A DNA stretch of 17,877 nt from a virus (lineage: Duplodnaviria > Heunggongvirae > Uroviricota > Caudoviricetes), in the IMG/VR virus record IMGVR_UViG_3300028601_000028, positions 1-17,877 of that record; one strand, written 5' to 3'. The position numbers and the translations under genes are program-made. Positions 4,591-13,878 of the stretch are shown here, piece after piece (the first letter of the stretch is position 1; every line of letters starts with the position of its first letter). A model generated the notes under the pieces. It saw nothing but the letters and a program-made list of their open reading frames with translations, had not been told where the DNA came from and made no database searches.

Positions 4591-5412
4591 ATGAGTGAAG
4601 ATAAAAAATTTAAAGAAGTATTAGATAAAGCTAAAGAATTAGAAAATATAGACTTTAAAAAAGTTAAAGATTTTAATTATGATGAATATTATAAAACAAT
4701 TGAAGAAATAGCTAAGAAAAATAATACATTTAAAAATGAGGAAGCTGAAAATTTAATAAAAAATGACAATGGTGTATTATTAAATATTGACTTTTATAAT
4801 GAATTAAATAAAAAGAAAGAAACCATTTTAAATTTAATTAGAAAGTATGATCCAAATACAGATATTATTAAAAATATGTCTGAACATGATGTGGATAAAG
4901 TATATGCGATATCTAATTATTTAGTTAATTCATATATTCAATATTTAAATGAAATGACATTTAATTTTGAATTAAAAGTAGAAGAATTAAAATTTTTAAA
5001 TAAAATTTTAACAAATGTTATTGAATACAATGGTGATGATGTATTTAATTATGTTGAATTATATGAAAATTTTTGGCAACATGTTATGACTGAATATGAG
5101 TCTGATAAATCAAAAGATGTTTATGTTTTTAAAGTAAGTATTAAAAAAATATTAATTTTACATCATTTGATAAAGAATTATAAAGTTAGAGGAATAACAA
5201 ATGAATTTAAATATTTTAGAAATATTTTATATAAAATTGCACAAACAAATAAGTTATTTAATGCCTACAATATCATTGTAGAAAGAGTTAAAGATGATTG
5301 TAAATTATGGGGTATTGCTTTAGATGAAGTTCTTTCAAATAAACAGAAAGATAATAAAGTAGAAGATATAAAAGAAATAACAGATACAAAACAAGAAAAA
5401 AAGGAAGTTTAA
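4591..5412 (+). CDS. Hypothetical alpha-helical protein
   Basis: 273-aa ORF with codon usage like its neighbours, ending inside a terminator hairpin. No motif recognised. Confidence 0.85.
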   Translation: MSEDKKFKEVLDKAKELENIDFKKVKDFNYDEYYKTIEEIAKKNNTFKNEEAENLIKNDNGVLLNIDFYNELNKKKETILNLIRKYDPNTDIIKNMSEHDVDKVYAISNYLVNSYIQYLNEMTFNFELKVEELKFLNKILTNVIEYNGDDVFNYVELYENFWQHVMTEYESDKSKDVYVFKVSIKKILILHHLIKNYKVRGITNEFKYFRNILYKIAQTNKLFNAYNIIVERVKDDCKLWGIALDEVLSNKQKDNKVEDIKEITDTKQEKKEV

Positions 5413-5424
5413 AACTTCCTTTTT
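5398..5424. terminator. Bidirectional intrinsic terminator
   Basis: AAAAAGGAAGTT-TAA-AACTTCCTTTTT is a 12-bp perfect inverted repeat with A/T tracts on both sides, between convergent genes. Confidence 0.85.
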
Positions 5425-5438
5425 CTTTTAATACAAAA

Positions 5439-5833
5439 TTATTGTGATGATTTATATGTTTCTCCTAATACATAAGCACCAACAAACGGTGTTAATGCAC
5501 CGAAGTATGTTGATAAATCTATTAAAGGTAAAGGTTTTAATATTGAAAAAACACCAACAATAGTCCATAATAATATAACTATATATGTTAATATTTCTCT
5601 TTTTGATGAATTTCCTGATTTGAATACTGTTGTTTTATTAGATTTTCTAGCAGATTCTCCCCATACATAAGCAATAATAAAACCAGTTAATGATATAAAA
5701 TATACTGACAATGTTTTAAAATCATTTACACCATTAGTATTAAAATACATTAATGATGCAAAAAATATCCATAAAAATATAACTATAAAACCAAAAGTAA
5801 TCTTTTTGAATTTATTGGTATTGGTAAATTCAT
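5439..5833 (-). CDS. Four-TM membrane protein built from two tandem two-TM repeats (holin-like); true start lies upstream of the called ATG at 5750
   Basis: The frame stays open upstream of 5750 to 5861 and adds KKITFGFIVIFLWIFFASL. This aligns with the second half KREILTYIVILLWTIVGV. The repeat ends also align: FISLTGFIIAYVWGESARKS vs FGALTPFVGAYVLGETYKSS. The ATG at 5833 is one base out of frame. Confidence 0.7.
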
Positions 5834-6157
5834 TTATGATTTTAATTTTTTTAAAATATATTTAACATCATATTCTTTAACTTCATGTTCATTTGTATCC
5901 TTATTTATAATATCTAATAATACTAAATTACCCTTTAACCCAATTATTTGACCTGTTATACCATCAATTTCAATGAATTTACTTGATCTTAAAATATCAT
6001 AAGGGTTTCTCATAGATTTATTAGGTAAATTATTAAACATTGGTTTATTTTTATCATCCTTTGTTCCTTTTATATGATCATCATTAAAATCATTTAAATT
6101 TAAAATATCTTTATTATTTTTTGATTCATTTAAGAAATCATTAAATTTTTTAATCAT
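5834..6157 (-). CDS. Capsid-targeting-tagged hypothetical protein; possible C-terminal SH3-like barrel
   Basis: Start reassigned from 6190 to the ATG at 6157 (MIKKFNDFLNE-SK...), which removes the overlap with the upstream gene and puts the shared tag at the N-terminus. 107 aa. Confidence 0.75.
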   Translation of the reverse strand: MIKKFNDFLNESKNNKDILNLNDFNDDHIKGTKDDKNKPMFNNLPNKSMRNPYDILRSSKFIEIDGITGQIIGLKGNLVLLDIINKDTNEHEVKEYDVKYILKKLKS

Positions 6158-6160
6158 TTT
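6125..6160. repeat. 36-bp perfect direct repeat, copy 1 (encodes MIKKFNDFLNE on the minus strand)
   Basis: TTCATTTAAGAAATCATTAAATTTTTTAATCATTTT is identical to 6609-6644 (offset 484 bp). The flanking bases differ on both sides. Confidence 0.95.
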
Positions 6161-6164
6161 TGTA

Positions 6165-6641
6165 TTATTCTTTTTTAGATAATTCATCATAAATGGAATT
6201 GATTAAATTATTAATAGATTTATCAGATATATTTGTAGTAAAATTAACTAATGATTTAATTAAATTTATAATTTTATTTATATCTTTTGTATCCAAATAA
6301 TAATTGTATATATTTGTATCTTTCCATATATAACTTTTATTATTCTTTATATTATAAAGACTAAAAGATATTAATTGTTGTCTATGACCTGTATATATAT
6401 CAAATGAAAAATGAACATTATATCCATCTTCTTTTACATTTATTATTGGTTTTACTATTATTTCAGCATCTATTTCTTGAATACCTGATGATGTTTTATA
6501 ATAAACCTTAATATCTTTATCAGGTAAAATATCATCAATGACTTCAACTATTCTTTTTTGGTATTCATTTTCACCTTTTTTGAAATCAATGGGTTCATGT
6601 ATATTTTTTTCATTTAAGAAATCATTAAATTTTTTAATCAT
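6165..6641 (-). CDS. Capsid-targeting-tagged hypothetical protein
   Basis: 158 aa starting MIKKFNDFLNE-KN. The rest shows no similarity to the neighbour carrying the same tag. Confidence 0.8.
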   Translation of the reverse strand: MIKKFNDFLNEKNIHEPIDFKKGENEYQKRIVEVIDDILPDKDIKVYYKTSSGIQEIDAEIIVKPIINVKEDGYNVHFSFDIYTGHRQQLISFSLYNIKNNKSYIWKDTNIYNYYLDTKDINKIINLIKSLVNFTTNISDKSINNLINSIYDELSKKE

Positions 6642-6644
6642 TTT
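6609..6644. repeat. 36-bp perfect direct repeat, copy 2
   Basis: Identical to 6125-6160. Confidence 0.95.
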
Positions 6645-6659
6645 AGTTATTTTTATTTT

Positions 6660-8042
6660 TTAGTCTTCTGTATTATTATCATCATCAGATACTAAAGTCA
6701 TTTTACCACTAGGTGCAACATCTATTATTCTACCATCTTTTAATTCATATCTATTAAAAAAATCATTAGGTGATTCTATTTGTTTTGCTCCCTCTACTTC
6801 TTCTTCTGTTAATTGATCAGAAATATCAACTGATTCATTTATTTTAGATGATTTTTTAGCTTTCTTAATAATACCTTTTTTTAAACCTTCTGGTAATTTT
6901 CTTTGTTTTGGTGTTAAATATTTTTCTTCATCACTTTTATTAATATCATTCTTTTTATCTTTTTTATCATCTTTCTTATCATCGTCGCAGTCATTGCATT
7001 CTTCTTTATCTTTTTTATCATTTAATTTTTTACCGGATTTTTTCATTTTTTTAATAATTCCTTTCTTTAATCCTTCTGGTAATTTTCTTTGTTTTGGGGT
7101 TAGATATAATTCTTCATCATTCTTAGATTCATATAAAAAAGAATCATCATAATCAATACCTAATATATTAAATATATCTTCATATACACTAGCTAATCCA
7201 TTCCTTTCTACAAAATATATCAATTTTTGTTCCCATGTTGTAGCTTCTAATAAATTATTATCTTCTGCAAATGATTTAATATCACTTTTTACACTTTCTG
7301 ATTCTTCTCCTTCAATAATTGAGATTATGTCATTAGTATATCCATAAATATCCATATCATCTAAGATTTCGGTTATTTCATTAATTTGCCATTTTTTTAA
7401 TTTTTTATTTGATTCAAATAATTTTTTATCTTTTGATTCGTATACTGTTTCATTGAATGCGTTTTCTATCATATCTTCAGTTGCTCCAATAAAAGATAAT
7501 GCTTCTTTTTTATCACTATCTGACATCTTTCTAAATGTTACAAGAACATCATTTGTTTCTTCTAAATCATATTTAGACATTAATTTATATAATTTATCAA
7601 ATCCGTCCTTATTAATATCATAGTTTTCTGGACTTTCATGTAAATCAATAAATAATTCTTCCATTTCACCAATAGGTTTATCTATTTCAAATTCAGGTTT
7701 TTTAGATTCGTTTATTGATTCTTTTAAGTTACTCCTTTTTTTAAAATCGGTAAATCTAGATAATTTCTTAATATTAGATGGTTGTGTGGATGCAGCAGCA
7801 ATTGATTTATTATTAGCATCATTTTTGGAGAAATGTTCCCATGTATCTATTTCTCTTTTACTACTAAATGGATTATCCATATAATAAGCATTAGGCATTT
7901 TATTCTCTTTATATTTACTTGTGGTTCTTACTTTATGTTCTATATCACCACCTTCACTATCAATTGTTCTCTTCAAATTTTGAAGTTGCTTTTTAGTTCT
8001 ATCTCTTAATAGAGATTCATCTATTTTATTATTTCTTTTCAT
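6660..8042 (-). CDS. Highly charged probable prohead core or internal polyprotein with many putative protease sites
   Basis: 460 aa with eight [ILV]-x-E-S motifs (IDES, LKES, INES, LHES, VYES, LFES, LYES, INES), internal tag-like segments (IDTWEHF; IKKLSRFTDF), and a duplicated 20-aa basic motif. Confidence 0.6.
   Translation of the reverse strand: MKRNNKIDESLLRDRTKKQLQNLKRTIDSEGGDIEHKVRTTSKYKENKMPNAYYMDNPFSSKREIDTWEHFSKNDANNKSIAAASTQPSNIKKLSRFTDFKKRSNLKESINESKKPEFEIDKPIGEMEELFIDLHESPENYDINKDGFDKLYKLMSKYDLEETNDVLVTFRKMSDSDKKEALSFIGATEDMIENAFNETVYESKDKKLFESNKKLKKWQINEITEILDDMDIYGYTNDIISIIEGEESESVKSDIKSFAEDNNLLEATTWEQKLIYFVERNGLASVYEDIFNILGIDYDDSFLYESKNDEELYLTPKQRKLPEGLKKGIIKKMKKSGKKLNDKKDKEECNDCDDDKKDDKKDKKNDINKSDEEKYLTPKQRKLPEGLKKGIIKKAKKSSKINESVDISDQLTEEEVEGAKQIESPNDFFNRYELKDGRIIDVAPSGKMTLVSDDDNNTED
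6861..7106 (-). repeat. Two copies of YLTPKQRKLPEGLKKGIIKK (7047-7106 and 6861-6920)
   Basis: Identical 20-aa peptide 62 codons apart, with synonymous DNA differences. A CxxC (CNDC) in a K/D-rich linker lies between the copies. Confidence 0.9.
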
Positions 8043-8060
8043 TTTTTCTTTTTATTTTTT

Positions 8061-8100
8061 AATTATATATAAAAATCTAATATTAATATTTAATATATAT
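8061..8100. promoter_or_regulatory. Back-to-back candidate late promoters (ATATATA) for the divergent genes
   Basis: Minus-strand ATATATA at 8064-8070 is 21 nt from ATG 8042. Plus-strand ATATATA at 8093-8099 is 22 nt from ATG 8122. Confidence 0.55.
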
Positions 8101-8121
8101 TAAAAAATATAATTAATAATT

Positions 8122-8640
8122 ATGAAAAAAATTAAGTCTTTTAAAAATTTTATAAAAGAAAATTTAGAGTTAGCTGAACCAAAAGTTAAACCAACTACAA
8201 AACCTACAACTAAACCAACTACAAAACCAGGTAGACCATCTCCATTTAGAAGAGATAAACCATCTGTTATACCAAAACCAAAAGCTACTGATAAACAAGT
8301 TGCTGATAAATTTCTTAAATTAACAAAAGGAAACAAAGAAATTGAAAATTACTTAATGAAAAAATATTCTAAAAATATTACCGAAAAATTTATGGGTAGT
8401 AAAGGAAATGAAAGAATATCTATTGATTTAAGAGGACCAGAAGGCAATGCTTATGCGATATTAGGATTAGTGAATAGATTATGTAAACAATTAAAAGATG
8501 TTGATCCTGAAAAATATGATAGTGAAAGAATAACAAATGAAATGATGTCAGGGGATTATAAAAATCTTGTAAATACATTTGAAGAATATTTTGGAGATTA
8601 TGTTGATATATATAATTCAGATGTTCTTGATGAATATTAA
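8122..8640 (+). CDS. Tagged two-domain protein: targeting peptide, Pro/Thr/Lys linker, then a C-terminal GPEGNAY...SGDY domain
   Basis: Starts MKKIKSFKNFIKE, then LAE, KPTT repeats and ITE. The C-terminal IDLRGPEGNAYAILG...EMMSGDYKNLV...FGDYV resembles a small conserved hypothetical of T4-like phages (recalled, not searched). Confidence 0.7.
   Translation: MKKIKSFKNFIKENLELAEPKVKPTTKPTTKPTTKPGRPSPFRRDKPSVIPKPKATDKQVADKFLKLTKGNKEIENYLMKKYSKNITEKFMGSKGNERISIDLRGPEGNAYAILGLVNRLCKQLKDVDPEKYDSERITNEMMSGDYKNLVNTFEEYFGDYVDIYNSDVLDEY
8188..8229 (+). repeat. 12-bp-period coding repeat (KPTT x3 plus KP)
   Basis: aaaccaactaca aaacctacaact aaaccaactaca aaacca. Confidence 0.9.
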
Positions 8641-8667: not shown

Positions 8668-9915
8668 ATGAAATTAAAAAAGTATAAAGAAATATTTGAA
8701 GAAGCAGATATTAAAGATGCTCTAGATGATGAATATTTAAAAAATGTTGAAAGAAAAGCTCGTCAACAATACGGTTATGGTCCATCTCGTCAAGAAATGA
8801 TGGAAGCAATGGATTTAATAAATAAAATATCAAGAATTCAAAGAGGACATGAGAAAGAATTAGAAGAAATTGGAATAAATGTACTTAAAAAACATTATCC
8901 TATTTTAAATGATATTGAATTAGATGTTAAAATAGTTAATCCTGATGATGAAGAAAAAATGGAAATGGCTCAAAAAATGATGGATGATGATCAAGAAGAA
9001 ATGAATTTTGATGGAAATGAAGATTATGGACCAGATGCACCACAAGATGAAATAAATAAAAGAAAAATTATTAATAATTTAATGCAAGGTGAATCACAAA
9101 ATGTACATCCAATGCTTTTTGATTGTAAAGAAGAAGTAGATAAAATTAGTACTGAACTTATTAATCTTCATATGAGACATCTTGAAATTAATAAGAAATT
9201 TGATTGGTTTGATCAAGTATCATTAGAAGAAATGATGGAACAAGCACCACAAATGGTAAATGCAATGGAAACTGATTATGAAGAAGATGAAGAAACAGGT
9301 GATACAAAACCAAAAATTAAAGCAAGAGTACTAGATTTAGTAATGCTAATACATGAAGTAGTTAAAGGTATATATGAACTTATTGCCGCAAAGGCAATAC
9401 CAGAAGATTCAGTTATGGCTAATAAAATATTATCAAAAACTGATAGTTTAAAAGATGAGCAACAAGATATTCGTTATGGACCATATATTGCAGCCGATTT
9501 AAGAAATTATTTAAACGAACATTTTGAAAAAATAATGATTGGTTATCAAGGAGATAATGTAAAGGAATTAATTTATGGTGAATTGGTTATGTTGCCGGCA
9601 TCAGAATTTATTGACGTTATTAAAGGAATGTTAAGTAATGATACAACTGTTACATTAAGAAAAATTAAAAAAATAGTTGACGATGTTGTTAATGAAATAG
9701 ATAATTATTATAAGAAATCAACAATGTCTGAATTTGAATATGAAGATGATGAAGATATTTTAGATTTACCAGTTAAAGAAGAACCTAAAAAAGAATTAAC
9801 TGATAAAGATTATAAGAATATGGGACAAAATGAATTAAATTACCAATTAAATTTAGCTATAGACAATGGAGATTTTGAGTTAGCTAAAAAAATATCAGAA
9901 TTTATAAAAGATTAA
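8668..9915 (+). CDS. Acidic helical protein with an N-terminal tag-like peptide and a C-terminal UVR-like coiled-coil motif
   Basis: 415 aa. Starts MKLKKYKEIFEE and ends ELNYQLNLAIDNGDFELAKKISEFIKD, matching the UVR (UvrB/UvrC) pattern L...A....DFE.A..I. Confidence 0.65.
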   Translation: MKLKKYKEIFEEADIKDALDDEYLKNVERKARQQYGYGPSRQEMMEAMDLINKISRIQRGHEKELEEIGINVLKKHYPILNDIELDVKIVNPDDEEKMEMAQKMMDDDQEEMNFDGNEDYGPDAPQDEINKRKIINNLMQGESQNVHPMLFDCKEEVDKISTELINLHMRHLEINKKFDWFDQVSLEEMMEQAPQMVNAMETDYEEDEETGDTKPKIKARVLDLVMLIHEVVKGIYELIAAKAIPEDSVMANKILSKTDSLKDEQQDIRYGPYIAADLRNYLNEHFEKIMIGYQGDNVKELIYGELVMLPASEFIDVIKGMLSNDTTVTLRKIKKIVDDVVNEIDNYYKKSTMSEFEYEDDEDILDLPVKEEPKKELTDKDYKNMGQNELNYQLNLAIDNGDFELAKKISEFIKD

Positions 9916-9930
9916 AAATAATAAAATATT

Positions 9931-10314
9931 ATGAAACATGTAAAATCTTTTGATAATTTTAATAATGAATGGATTATAGAAGAAAGTGAAACTGAAATAA
10001 TAACACTTTCATTAAATGAAAGTATTGATCAGGTTAAAAAAGTTGATGATGGTATAATATATAGAGGAGAAAAATTTACAGGTTATAATAAACCTAAAAA
10101 ATATACAGGTAAAGGAAAATTTAAAAAAAGAGTTTTGGCTAAAGAAGGTGATAAAATTAAAATCCTAAACTATGGACATAAAGATTATGAAGATTATACA
10201 ACACATAAAGATAAAGATAGAAGAAAAAATTTTAGAGCAAGACATAATTGTGATCCAGTTAGTAACTTATCGAAATTAACAAAAAGATATTGGGCTTGTC
10301 AAGATTTATGGTAA
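9931..10314 (+). CDS. Tagged small basic protein, DUF5754-like (HKD..RR..F..RH.C...YW.C..LW)
   Basis: Starts MKHVKSFDNFNNE...LNES. The C-terminal LNYGHKDYEDYTTHKDKDRRKNFRARHNCD...RYWACQDLW resembles a viral family seen in T4-like phages and NCLDVs. The Pfam name is from memory. Confidence 0.55.
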   Translation: MKHVKSFDNFNNEWIIEESETEIITLSLNESIDQVKKVDDGIIYRGEKFTGYNKPKKYTGKGKFKKRVLAKEGDKIKILNYGHKDYEDYTTHKDKDRRKNFRARHNCDPVSNLSKLTKRYWACQDLW

Positions 10315-10360: not shown

Positions 10361-11257
10361 TTATTTAAAAGGAATTTCATTTTTTAAAATATCTTCTATA
10401 TTTTGATCATATCTTATTCTTATAAGTTTAATATTATTATTTTGACAGTATTCTGTTTTAATTTGGTCTCTTAATTGTCTAGTCATTAAATTTTTTTTAT
10501 TTTTTTCAAATCTATATTTCTTAAAATGTTGCTCACCGTCATATTCGACACATATATTATAATTTGGTAAATAAAAATCAAATTTTAATTTTCTTTTATA
10601 TTCACATCCTTCAAACATTTTTTGTGATTCATATAGAATATTATTTTTTTCAAAAAATGATTTAATTATCTTTTCATTTTTACTTAATTTACATTTTGGG
10701 CAACCAGAACCATTCATATGATTTTGCGCATTTTGTTCAAATTCACCATGTTCATCACAAATTATTTTAATTTTTGATGTTAAATTTATTAAATTTACTA
10801 AAGAATAATCATATTTAAAATCGTGTTTTAAATTACATCTGTTAATATATTCATCTCTTATAATTTTATTATTTTTAGCACATTTTGGACATCCAGAACC
10901 ATTAATATGATCAATTGGATTTTGTTCAAATATACCATGCTCTTTACAAATAATTCTAATTTTTGTTTTTGCATTTATATAATTTACCAAAGAATAGTCA
11001 TATTTAAAATTATGTGTAATATTAGACTTTTTAATAATATAATCATTATCTCTTTTTAATGTTTTAGAACATAAATAACAACCATGACCACTTAAATGAT
11101 CATCTGGTCTTTGTTCAAATACACCATGTTTATGACAAATAATTTTAATTTTTGTTTTATTATTAATATAATTCATTAAAGAATAGTCATATAAATTATT
11201 ATGAACCTTATTAAAATCATTAATAACCTGCTCTTTTGTTTTTCTTTTATTTGACAT
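10361..11257 (-). CDS. Free-standing Hef/Vsr-like (EDxHD-type) homing endonuclease with three zinc-binding repeats
   Basis: Three 63-aa repeats YDYS...IICxxHG.FEQ....H..G.GC..C, then SKNE(195)...FD(227)FY...VE(238)YDGEQH(244)...RD(264). Confidence 0.8.
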   Translation of the reverse strand: MSNKRKTKEQVINDFNKVHNNLYDYSLMNYINNKTKIKIICHKHGVFEQRPDDHLSGHGCYLCSKTLKRDNDYIIKKSNITHNFKYDYSLVNYINAKTKIRIICKEHGIFEQNPIDHINGSGCPKCAKNNKIIRDEYINRCNLKHDFKYDYSLVNLINLTSKIKIICDEHGEFEQNAQNHMNGSGCPKCKLSKNEKIIKSFFEKNNILYESQKMFEGCEYKRKLKFDFYLPNYNICVEYDGEQHFKKYRFEKNKKNLMTRQLRDQIKTEYCQNNNIKLIRIRYDQNIEDILKNEIPFK

Positions 11258-11390: not shown

Positions 11391-11400
11391 TATTATATAT
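11391..11400 (-). promoter_or_regulatory. Candidate promoter for the tRNA (ATATATAATA)
   Basis: ATATATA at 11394-11400 is 20 nt upstream of tRNA G1, contains TATAAT, and overlaps the stop codon of the upstream endonuclease. Confidence 0.45.
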
Positions 11401-12280
11401 CAGTTAAAAAGTTTAATTTTTTTTCAATATTTTCATTATATTTTATCCTTATTAATTTAATATTATTATTTATACAATATTCATTTTTTATTTGATCTCT
11501 TTTTAATCTATTTTCAAAATCATCTTTTTTATCAAAAAATTCATTTATTATAAAATGCTGTTTACCATCATACTCTATACAAATATTATAATCAGGTAAA
11601 TAAAAATCAAATTTTAAATTTCTTTTATATTTACAACCTTTAAAATATTTTTGATAATCATATTTTATACTATTATATTCTAGAAATTTTCTTATTTCTT
11701 TTTCTCCTTTTGATTCATTACAAATAGGACAACCTTGTCCTAATAAGTGTTTGGCAGGTGTTTGTTTAAACATACCGTGTTTAGGGCATATTATTTTTAC
11801 TTTTTTTATATTATTTATATAATTAACTTGACTATAATTATAATAATTATTATGAATAATATTAAATCTTAATATAACATCTGATTGTTCTGAAGTCCTG
11901 TTTTCATTATAACAAATAGGACAACCATTTTTCTTAATTATATGATTCTGTGGTGTTTGTTTAAATATACCGTGTTTAGGGCATATTATTTTTACATTTG
12001 TATGTGCATTTTTATAATCTACTAATGAATAGTCATAAAAATTATTATGTATTATATTTGATTTTAATTTAAATGTTATGTTGGTATATTTTTTATTTTT
12101 ACTACAATATGGACATCCACTGCCCATTAAATGATGATCTGGTCTTTGTTCAAAAACATTATGTTCTTTGCATATTATTTTAACTTTAATTTTAGAATTT
12201 TTATAATCTACTAATGAATAATCATATCTATCACCATGTATTTTATTAAATTGATTGATAATTTTTTCATTACTTTTCAT
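11393..12280 (-). CDS. Second Hef/Vsr-like homing endonuclease with three zinc-binding repeats (paralog of 10361..11257)
   Basis: Repeats start at aa 19, 82 and 147. Nuclease residues E193, D225, E236, H242 and D262 (SKGE...FDFYLP...IEYDGKQH...RDQIK). Confidence 0.8.
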   Translation of the reverse strand: MKSNEKIINQFNKIHGDRYDYSLVDYKNSKIKVKIICKEHNVFEQRPDHHLMGSGCPYCSKNKKYTNITFKLKSNIIHNNFYDYSLVDYKNAHTNVKIICPKHGIFKQTPQNHIIKKNGCPICYNENRTSEQSDVILRFNIIHNNYYNYSQVNYINNIKKVKIICPKHGMFKQTPAKHLLGQGCPICNESKGEKEIRKFLEYNSIKYDYQKYFKGCKYKRNLKFDFYLPDYNICIEYDGKQHFIINEFFDKKDDFENRLKRDQIKNEYCINNNIKLIRIKYNENIEKKLNFLTDI

Positions 12281-12366: not shown

Positions 12367-13878
12367 ATGTTAATAGATTATGAATATAGGCAAAAGAAGT
12401 TAATTGTAAGTTACATTGATGATAATGGTAATATAAAGTTAAAATATTATCCTTGGAATAATCCCACTAAATTTATAATATGTGATGATAATGACAGTGA
12501 TAAATCAGGTAAATATGTTACTTGGGATGGTAAATCTATAAAAGAAATATACACACAACACCCGAATAGATATTCGGTTTATGATTTTTTGGATAAATTA
12601 CCAGAAGAAGAGAAAAAATTATTGTTCGAATATAAAGAACCTAATATATTCTTTATAGATATAGAGAACGAAATAATTGATAAAAAACCACAACCTCATT
12701 TGGCTGAATCTGCTATTCAATCAATATCTATTGTTAATAAAGATAAAGTTTTAGTTTTAGGTACTAAGAAATTAAATAAATCGGAAATAGATTCAATTAA
12801 AAGTGGTATAAATAACCATTTCGATAAATTAAAAACAAATTATGATTTTATGTATCGTTATTATAATAGTGAGTATGACATGTTACTTAACTATTTTAAG
12901 TTAATGGTACCAAAAATGTCAGTATTAACGGGATGGAATTTTGTGAATTATGACTGGGTTTTTTTGGTGAATAGAGCAAGGAAATTAGGTATTGATCCTA
13001 GTATTTCTTCATTTACTGGTAATTTAAGATCATCTTGGATGCAGAATGATCATTCTGAAATACCTGCACACCGTGTCATAATTGATTATATGGAATTATA
13101 TGCAAAATGGGATACGTCAATAAAAGTTAAAGAATCACAAGGGTTAGATTTTGTTTCTGATAATGTACTTGGTGTTAAAAAGATTAATTATGAAGGTAAT
13201 CTTAAATATTTATATGAAAGTGATTATCAAAAATTCATATTGTATAATGCTATTGACTCAGCACTAGTTCAGCAGATACACTTAAAGATGAAATATATTG
13301 ATATTTTATATGGTATTGCAACATTATCAAAAATTAGAGTTATTGATGCATTTACTACATTAACAGTAACAGAAGGTATATTAAGAGAGAAAATGAGATT
13401 TGAAAAGAATGTAGTATTTGTTAAAGATGATACAAAGAAAGATGATACTATTGATGACGATATGAATGTTAAAGGAGGTTGGGTTAAAGATCCGATAGTT
13501 GGAATGAATAGTTGGACTATTTGTTTTGATTTTGCATCTCTATATCCTACAACTATGCAAGAATTTAATATATCTGCTGATTCTTATATTGGTAAAGTTA
13601 TAAAAGATAGAGGTAAAAGTATAAGTGACATGATAGATAAATTGCAATCTGGTGGAGATGTATATTCGGTATTTAATGGACATAAAATAAAATTAGATAA
13701 AAACTCAATTATAACATTAAATGGTGCTGTTTTTAGGAATGAAGATGGTGTAGTTAAAAAAGTTATGGGTAATATTTACAAAGAAAGAAAAAAATATAAG
13801 AAAATGATGATGTCTGCAAATGAAGAATTGAAAGATTTGCAAAATGAATTAGAAAGATTAGAAAAAGAATTAAATTAA
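12367..13878 (+). CDS. polB: Family-B DNA polymerase, N-terminal subunit (3'-5' exonuclease, motif A and first fingers helix); split or truncated
   Basis: ExoI FID(98)IE, ExoII GWN...YDW, ExoIII YNAID, KGGWVKDP and motif A D(388)FASLYP are present. The protein ends ERKKYKKMMMSANEELKDLQNELERLEKELN*. Motif B (KxxxNSxYG) and motif C (YGDTDS) are absent. Confidence 0.9.
   Translation: MLIDYEYRQKKLIVSYIDDNGNIKLKYYPWNNPTKFIICDDNDSDKSGKYVTWDGKSIKEIYTQHPNRYSVYDFLDKLPEEEKKLLFEYKEPNIFFIDIENEIIDKKPQPHLAESAIQSISIVNKDKVLVLGTKKLNKSEIDSIKSGINNHFDKLKTNYDFMYRYYNSEYDMLLNYFKLMVPKMSVLTGWNFVNYDWVFLVNRARKLGIDPSISSFTGNLRSSWMQNDHSEIPAHRVIIDYMELYAKWDTSIKVKESQGLDFVSDNVLGVKKINYEGNLKYLYESDYQKFILYNAIDSALVQQIHLKMKYIDILYGIATLSKIRVIDAFTTLTVTEGILREKMRFEKNVVFVKDDTKKDDTIDDDMNVKGGWVKDPIVGMNSWTICFDFASLYPTTMQEFNISADSYIGKVIKDRGKSISDMIDKLQSGGDVYSVFNGHKIKLDKNSIITLNGAVFRNEDGVVKKVMGNIYKERKKYKKMMMSANEELKDLQNELERLEKELN

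Follow-up and report, generated by a model that had tools for sequence, protein, structure and literature searches.

The capsid targeting sequence (CTS) of bacteriophage T4 is MKTYQEFIAE (PMC8442874), in which residues 4 and 7 determine targeting while residues 8 and 10 determine processing (PMC9026906). In T4 it forms an N-terminal propeptide of ~10 residues on IPIII and IPII (also IPI and Alt), with a fixed aromatic/aromatic/aliphatic/Glu spacing (Mullaney & Black 1996; PMC9026906, PMC3012670, PMC8442874). The internal proteins of T-even phages are diverse and the CTS is the sole part that they have in common; it has been suggested to be an evolutionary device for placing various proteins in the head (PMC3012670, PMC9026906). 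The hypervariable ip loci of these phages carry varied cargo behind the conserved targeting sequence, with gene content differing among close relatives (Repoila et al. 1994, as cited in PMC3012670 and PMC9026906). Two of the genes, ipIII and ipII, are adjacent on one strand of the T4 genome (AF158101, 5417–6416) and begin with an exact common 5′ repeat of 47 nt, the copies being 697 nt apart. This covers the ribosome-binding site, the ATG, ten codons of the CTS and 2 more bases, after which the genes diverge. In view of this repeat ipIII should in principle be excisable by recombination.

Two further systems bear comparison. In T4-type phages the repeats of PeSL cassettes allow accessory genes to be deleted, inserted and replaced (Arbiol et al. 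2010, PMC2839356; PMC4122927). In phiKZ, 201phi2-1 and SPN3US cleavage after Glu at a short A/S/G-x-E motif processes many of the head proteins, mostly removing propeptides of >100 residues, and the SPN3US paralogues gp53 and gp54 have identical N-terminal 15 residues on diverged bodies (PMC5694885).

The DNA analysed here, termed the window, is 17,877 nucleotides long and comprises the first 17,877 bases of the 81.9-kb contig C70. It contains an exact 36-nt direct repeat, with copies at 6125–6160 and 6609–6644 that lie 484 nt apart on the minus strand. The sequence AAA-ATG-ATT-AAA-AAA-TTT-AAT-GAT-TTC-TTA-AAT-GAA comprises three leader bases, the start codon and ten further codons, and thus encodes the peptide MIKKFNDFLNE, hereafter the tag. 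The copy at 6609–6644 heads gene A (6165–6641, minus strand; 158 aa), in which the tag is followed by an alpha/beta domain; this is the gene that could be deleted as cargo. The downstream copy at 6125–6160 heads gene B (5834–6157, minus strand), which has 107 aa when counted from the ATG of the tag and in which a variable linker connects the tag to a conserved small beta-barrel domain at the C-terminus. The mechanically called reading frame of B begins at 6190, yet the tag and all the orthologues place the start at 6157. The first codon after the repeat is AAA (Lys) in A and TCA (Ser) in B, and similarity between the two proteins by BLASTP is limited to the 11/11 residues of the tag. An earlier note on this DNA had described an identical 36 bp opening two unrelated adjacent genes that diverge after the Glu codon, and the comparison bears this out. 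The search for other copies that it called for, allowing ≤3 mismatches, finds just these two in the window and the 3.6-Mb assembly, and none of 200 dinucleotide-preserving shuffles matches the 36-mer. The window thus reproduces the layout of ipIII and ipII, adjacent same-strand genes with identical 5′ DNA (36 nt here, 47 nt in T4), and the likeness to T-even phages that the note proposed holds at this level.

The source of the window is a phage. In bin G000, eleven contigs of 20–23% GC (C1, C18, C27, C32, C34, C39, C41, C45, C55, C70 and C79; 238 kb) are grouped with a metagenome-assembled genome whose other contigs have 52–64% GC. Given this difference in composition, C70 and the other ten are mis-binned DNA of a T4-like huge phage of 22% GC. 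Another contig of the set, C32, carries a major capsid gene of the Gp23 family at 19586–20953 (PF07068, 92 bits; PHROG 138). The capsid protein matches T4 gp23 structures with E 2e-07, in an alignment that spans the C-terminal half alone. A head maturation protease is encoded directly upstream (PHROG 207, E 6e-34); its identification is based upon the PHROG family, as the match to Pfam Peptidase_S77 (PF03420) lies at the cut-off (25–27 bits). The protease domain is the N-terminus of an 817-aa reading frame (C32:16770–19223), the rest of which is of low complexity with an internal MTKYLDYLAE motif at C32:17544; this may be a protease–scaffold fusion directly before the capsid gene. The closest capsid proteins in GenBank are those of uncultured huge phages of 634–735 kb (LR756501-4 and LR745206; 53–61% identity), followed by the uncultured 462-kb phage LR756500 (32%) and then the Lak phages (28%). 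Since its capsid protein is 61% identical to those of the 735-kb phages LR756501/LR756503, the complete genome is probably much larger than 238 kb. The strain of the window is found in landfill, fermentation and groundwater metagenomes.

The tag belongs to a family. The motif M-x(1-5)-aromatic-x-x-aromatic/aliphatic-aliphatic-x(1-2)-E was scanned over 284 crude reading frames, and is present at the first Met of 24 of them compared with 12 of 1038 internal Mets, a 7-fold enrichment. About 25 phage reading frames (~9%) are tagged, examples being MKKIKSFKNFIKE, MKHVKSFDNFNNE, MKIKNFNEFINE and MKIKRFNDFLNE. A few of the sequences caught by the loose motif are probably false, such as an exonuclease-like protein on C32. 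This protein (C32:29641–30438) combines a tag-like start (MDKIIKFSDFLLE) with a DEDD exonuclease-like motif (FVDTETTGL), and may be either a packaged nuclease or a false match. Three more tagged genes lie on the plus strand of the window, the first of them divergent from gene U, which is located upstream of A. They are 8122–8640 (MKKIKSFKNFIKE↓N...), 8668–9915 with a looser tag (MKLKKYKEIFEE↓A...) and 9931–10314 (MKHVKSFDNFNNE↓W...), where the arrow marks the predicted cut. The last has a C-terminal DUF5754 domain, which recurs in PHROG families whose annotation is 'minor head protein and DNA pilot'.

Comparison with the CTS leads us to read the tag as a probable head-loading propeptide that would be removed by the protease. 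In MIKKFNDFLNE the residues F5, F8, L9 and E11 follow one another at the 3-1-2 spacing of Y4, F7, I8 and E10 in T4. N-terminal peptides of the CTS kind, 10–19 residues long on otherwise unrelated proteins, are represented here by the 11-residue tag of A and B, and a prohead protease of the gp21 family and a capsid protein of the gp23 family occur in one genome. As with the T4 internal proteins, the tagged proteins are otherwise unrelated and non-conserved. Residues 1–16 of the AlphaFold model of A have pLDDT below 50 and stand apart from a confident body (model pLDDT 81), in keeping with a cleaved propeptide. The same is true of the sequence ...QINE↓NVSY... at residues 41–48 of the capsid protein, which lies beyond the half compared with gp23, and of LLLNE↓S at residues 15–20 of the protease reading frame. 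There are also differences from T4. The genome is that of a very distant uncultured huge phage of 22% GC and ~9% of its reading frames are tagged, compared with a handful in T4. The site predicted from sequence is (I/L/V)-(N/T)-E↓S, and relatives fuse the same modules as one polyprotein. The T4 internal proteins are uniformly basic, while the mature tagged proteins here have pI values of 4.1–9.8. The phiKZ-type phages likewise cut head proteins after Glu, but the tags here are of T4 length with a T4-like motif.

The shared peptide could instead have no part in capsid loading, and be a spacer in a polyprotein, a translation-initiation region or an address elsewhere in the cell; recombination at the DNA level would still hold. 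The mixed pI of the tagged proteins could be cited for this, though we take their charge to give no support either way on head loading. The motif is also found inside polyproteins (for example M-R-K-F-E-E-F-K-N-E-S in P0013), and neither a Pfam family nor a known fold is evident for A, B and U. None of the three has a match in Pfam or PHROG; tblastn with A and B against 50,697 GenBank phages found no match, nor did a search of IMG/VR with A. The model of A gives no convincing fold match in the PDB by Foldseek, a best Z of 4.7 by VIA-align (PH-like, within noise) and TM values of up to 0.44 in the ESM Atlas, again without a convincing match, while the model of B is confident in the last 47 residues only. 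Against such a role stand the spacing of the determinants, which equals that of the T4 CTS, the T4-type pair of protease and capsid genes, the sites close to the N-termini of the capsid protein (I-N-E) and of the protease reading frame (L-N-E↓S), and the one tagged protein whose domain is joined to minor head proteins in other phages. Synonymous variation between lineages speaks against an element acting at the level of RNA. Taken together we regard a non-capsid role as unlikely, if still deserving of some weight, and continue with the tag as a head-loading propeptide.

If two copies of the tag-coding repeat recombine, strains should exist in which gene A has been removed, and the earlier note suggested looking for them. 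Three contigs of relatives are of this kind. L014, from JGI sample 3300028603 and also deposited in an NCBI MAG, shares 97.5% identity in gene U with L009, which carries A, and lacks exactly 497 nt from the A-tag to the B-tag. Its junction passes from the upstream context of A into the tag and then directly into the body of B. The same junction is present on two ENA k141 contigs, L021 and L023, making three independent assemblies in all. In each the breakpoints lie inside a stretch of 33 nt that is identical on both sides. In a tree of the flanking domains L014 is the sister of L009 (support 97/94) within the clade that carries A, and from this nested position it follows that A has been lost in L014. 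The predicted consequence of recombination, removal of A with B left intact, is thus observed as a homologous event in the sister lineage represented by L014, L021 and L023, and it is from this lineage rather than the strain of the window itself that the form lacking A is known. One of the samples with the A-less junction, ERZ27247346, also yields the A-carrying contigs L013 and L016, of two lineages. Indel breakpoints that fall within repeats in close relatives are a defining feature of PeSL, and L014, L021 and L023 compared with L009 show it.

Both the repeat and the junction could in principle be artefacts of assembly, as the earlier note had recognized for the repeat. Short repeats can mislead de Bruijn assemblers, and in the Logan contigs (k=31) of four other runs the ends fall exactly upon the two repeat copies. 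Such breaks are expected of a true repeat longer than 31 nt, and they make these contigs uninformative on an A-less variant of the window's strain, while the body of A is present in runs X5, X6, X7 and X9. Logan joints with sides of 21 nt have been taken as spurious. Both copies are found on single contigs in three independent assemblies, which include L015 (JGI) and L016 (ENA, k=141), and the A-less junction emerged from three assemblies, two of them at k=141, far above the 33-nt repeat. An artefact is therefore scarcely credible.

The two tags within a genome also show signs of concerted evolution. The A-tag and B-tag differ at 0/33 bases in the window (states common to both: AAA, TTC), 1/33 in L009 (AAG, TTT), 2/33 in L012 (AAG), 2/33 in L007 (ATA, K3T, F8Y) and 5/33 in L006, where the differences are at synonymous sites and no states are held in common. 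Orthologous tags differ at ≥3 bases across lineages. The B-tag of L009 has three derived synonymous changes (AAA to AAG, TTC to TTT and AAC to AAT, polarized by the window, L006 and L007 as outgroups), all of which match the adjacent A-tag; the last codon alone remains unlike between the two. Since the tags co-vary within genomes, synonymous sites included, they appear to undergo gene conversion. The shared nonsynonymous changes of L007 could in principle reflect parallel selection. In the other tagged genes of L007 the second aromatic position is occupied by two phenylalanines and one isoleucine, and in none by tyrosine, which speaks against a change of the tag's binding partner throughout the genome. 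Homogenization is not constant, as the five synonymous differences of L006 illustrate.

The identity of the tags at all synonymous positions, to which the earlier note gave prominence, is confirmed as an observation and carries less weight than was placed on it. Given the codon bias of the phage, the same 10 residues encoded twice independently would yield matching DNA with P = 0.066. It is the co-variation within genomes that counts for more than the perfect identity in the window, which on sequence evidence is better explained by gene conversion than by recency. Purifying selection with extreme codon bias might alone have kept the tags alike, the A-less strain having arisen by an unrelated deletion; the P value, which is not negligible, and the divergence of the L006 tags would agree with this. 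Yet the breakpoints in L014, L021 and L023 lie inside the 33-nt identical stretch at both ends, and lineage-specific synonymous states (AAG/TTT in L009, ATA in L007) are found in both tags. Moreover, a third tagged gene (C79:9880) has 7/8 residues as in A and B, yet differs at 4/24 bases, and among 351 pairs of tags only A and B are fully identical. Selection with codon bias is consequently an improbable explanation. The earlier note had allowed that relatives might always carry both genes with synonymously diverged tags, and what is found is strains lacking A together with synonymous states shared by the two tags. We conclude with considerable confidence that the two copies recombine in the manner described, giving both deletion and conversion.

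The earlier note further supposed that the locus had been caught soon after an insertion, and this is where its account fails. Orthologues of A and B are present in four further lineages, in the order U-A-B except in L014. Gene A is found in four lineages at one place, and the A proteins are 60–71% identical. A recent arrival of A, leaving the tags too little time to diverge, would explain the difference of 0/36 bases in the window. But beyond its fixed position and the divergence of its proteins, A is also a domain of a polyprotein in L020, its more distant homologues are separate tagged genes, and the tree makes the A-less form the derived one. Recent insertion is accordingly most improbable, and gene conversion in an established pair is the better account of the identity.

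The age of the modules is seen in the relatives. Gene U (6660–8042, minus strand; 460 aa) has a conserved N-terminal domain followed by variable middle modules, and in the window it contains two K-rich YLTPKQRKLPEGLKKGIIKK repeats with INE↓S sites at residues 108–111 and 399–402. In relatives U runs on into the A and/or B domains as a single polyprotein. Between the same flanking genes, at the orthologous locus, many relatives encode one protein in which variable middle modules separate the N-terminal domain of U from the B domain (P0008, P0009, P0011–P0015 and L017). In L020, the one low-coverage contig in which A occurs as a fused domain, a single reading frame of 580 aa holds U, A and B. 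Here the A domain is preceded by ...VNE↓SKK... and the B domain by ...INE↓SKK..., at joints where the free-standing genes read ...FLNE↓S/K. The sequence (I/L/V)-(N/T)-E-S in the fused relatives thus stands exactly at the positions of the tag ends in the split genes. The element [NT]ES occurs 22 times in 9 polyproteins compared with 2.7 ± 1.6 in shuffles, an 8-fold enrichment. From its position at the module joints and this enrichment the end of the tag is read as a protease site. The internal motif of P0013 noted above follows directly after the N-terminal domain. L024 is split at another joint, with a gene of 107 aa for the N-terminal domain alone and a second gene that starts MYTKFNDFKKINE↓G and comprises a middle module and B. 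In a midpoint-rooted tree the three-gene state is one clade (support 82/95) nested among fused forms. The topology suggests that the separate genes arose by fission of a polyprotein, with the qualification that the root is a midpoint and the deep nodes are weakly supported.

A scheme that would accommodate these observations is as follows. The 36-nt repeat is the common 5′ end of two adjacent genes of a late operon, containing leader bases, start codon and the propeptide MIKKFNDFLNE. The tag would act like the T4 CTS: through its two aromatic residues the protein would dock on the scaffolding core inside the prohead, and the head protease, of gp21 type, would then cut after the Glu of L-N-E to leave the mature cargo inside the head. 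In T4 a Glu-to-Asp change at the equivalent position blocks cutting. Being direct repeats with 33–36 identical bases, the two copies recombine, as the comparison of natural strains shows. Non-crossover events keep the two tags alike within a genome and so produce concerted evolution, while crossover or slippage removes A precisely and joins its upstream context to the tag and B. The arrangement may have originated as a cleavable polyprotein (U-...-A-B) with modules joined by (I/L/V)-(N/T)-E↓S sites, as the midpoint-rooted tree suggests, the modules having become separate genes in the clade of the window, each with its own start and tag.

More broadly, the tag-coding sequence might be a recombination substrate by which modules of a cleavable head polyprotein become free tagged genes and revert, with fission, fusion and cassette flux at protease-site/tag-coding repeats, and cargo being lost, homogenized and possibly gained. 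We offer this general scheme tentatively, as less probable than the recombination of the two repeats in itself. On such a scheme a tag-like motif inside a polyprotein, if it has an in-frame Met as in P0013, would be a latent gene start. For the insertion direction, the plug-in of new genes that the earlier note envisaged, the sole support is that the slot is filled by different modules from one relative to another, from which we infer that gain may occur.

The locus has features of both T4 systems. Relative to the T-even ip loci, as these are described in the reviews cited, the breakpoints of one natural deletion are here placed inside the tag-coding repeat itself and the concerted evolution of the tags is visible. 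As in PeSL, non-essential genes lie between short conserved direct repeats that bring about gene turnover among close relatives. The PeSL units are non-coding and composed of promoter plus terminator; the repeat here is coding, with start codon and propeptide. At the tags there is neither a sigma-70-like promoter with terminator stem-loop nor a terminator-like hairpin, and across 5300–8300 there are 24 promoter-like matches where 28.8 are expected, no excess over chance. The only hairpin in that interval, at 5396–5426, is a bidirectional terminator-like structure that closes the minus-strand U-A-B operon and a convergent gene of 273 aa. The layout is of the CTS/internal-protein kind known from T4, to which it adds unusually clear evidence from populations and the link between a polyprotein and split genes.

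If the tag is a head-loading signal, the proteins that are packed and injected could be predicted from sequence alone (~9% of reading frames), and the U-A-B locus would illustrate how the packed set changes. Natural populations provide evidence that a cargo gene is lost through recombination between tag-coding repeats, that the repeats are kept alike by gene conversion, and that one set of modules occurs either as a cleavable polyprotein or as genes with a tag each. The candidate cleavage motif (I/L/V)-(N/T)-E↓S with its short tag could be tested for the loading of foreign proteins, as with the T4 CTS.

Some other features of the region should be recorded. Inside gene U there are two direct repeats of 98 nt within 6842–7125 (minus strand), 84% identical and 186 nt apart, that encode EEKYLTPKQRKLPEGLKKGIIKK. 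An in-frame deletion of 84 nt in this region separates L014 from L009, and 84 nt are missing at 6870–6955 in a contig of run X6. These differences make a second length polymorphism of the operon that is associated with a repeat. The window's gene U also carries an extra module of ~100 residues (7128–7437, residues about 203–305) that is absent in L009, L014 and L007, and is bounded on either side by (V/L)-Y-E-S-K, a motif resembling a cut site.

The last gene of the U-A-B operon (5439–5834, minus strand) encodes a membrane protein of 131 aa in relatives. Near 5787 the window is one base shorter than L015, to which it is 99.7% identical, and than contigs of all four runs compared. As a result the gene, located downstream of B, is broken there, whether through an error of assembly or a genuine frameshift.

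The clade of L009 and L014 has a further tagged gene of 124 aa (MIITKFDMYINE...), located at 1305–1679 of L009 and present also in L019, L021 and L023. It lies directly upstream of the tagged homologue of the window gene at 8122–8640, and is absent from the window (8043–8121) and L007. This is a second case of presence or absence of a tagged gene beside another, although the tags are not identical there. A Pfam match to PF00154 at C70:21083–21526 may represent the RecA fold of a helicase rather than a phage recombinase. Lastly, 10361–11257 and 11393–12280 are tandem paralogous homing endonuclease genes of the DUF723/HNH type, and the pair adjoins a 503-aa fragment of DNA polymerase B (12367–13878).
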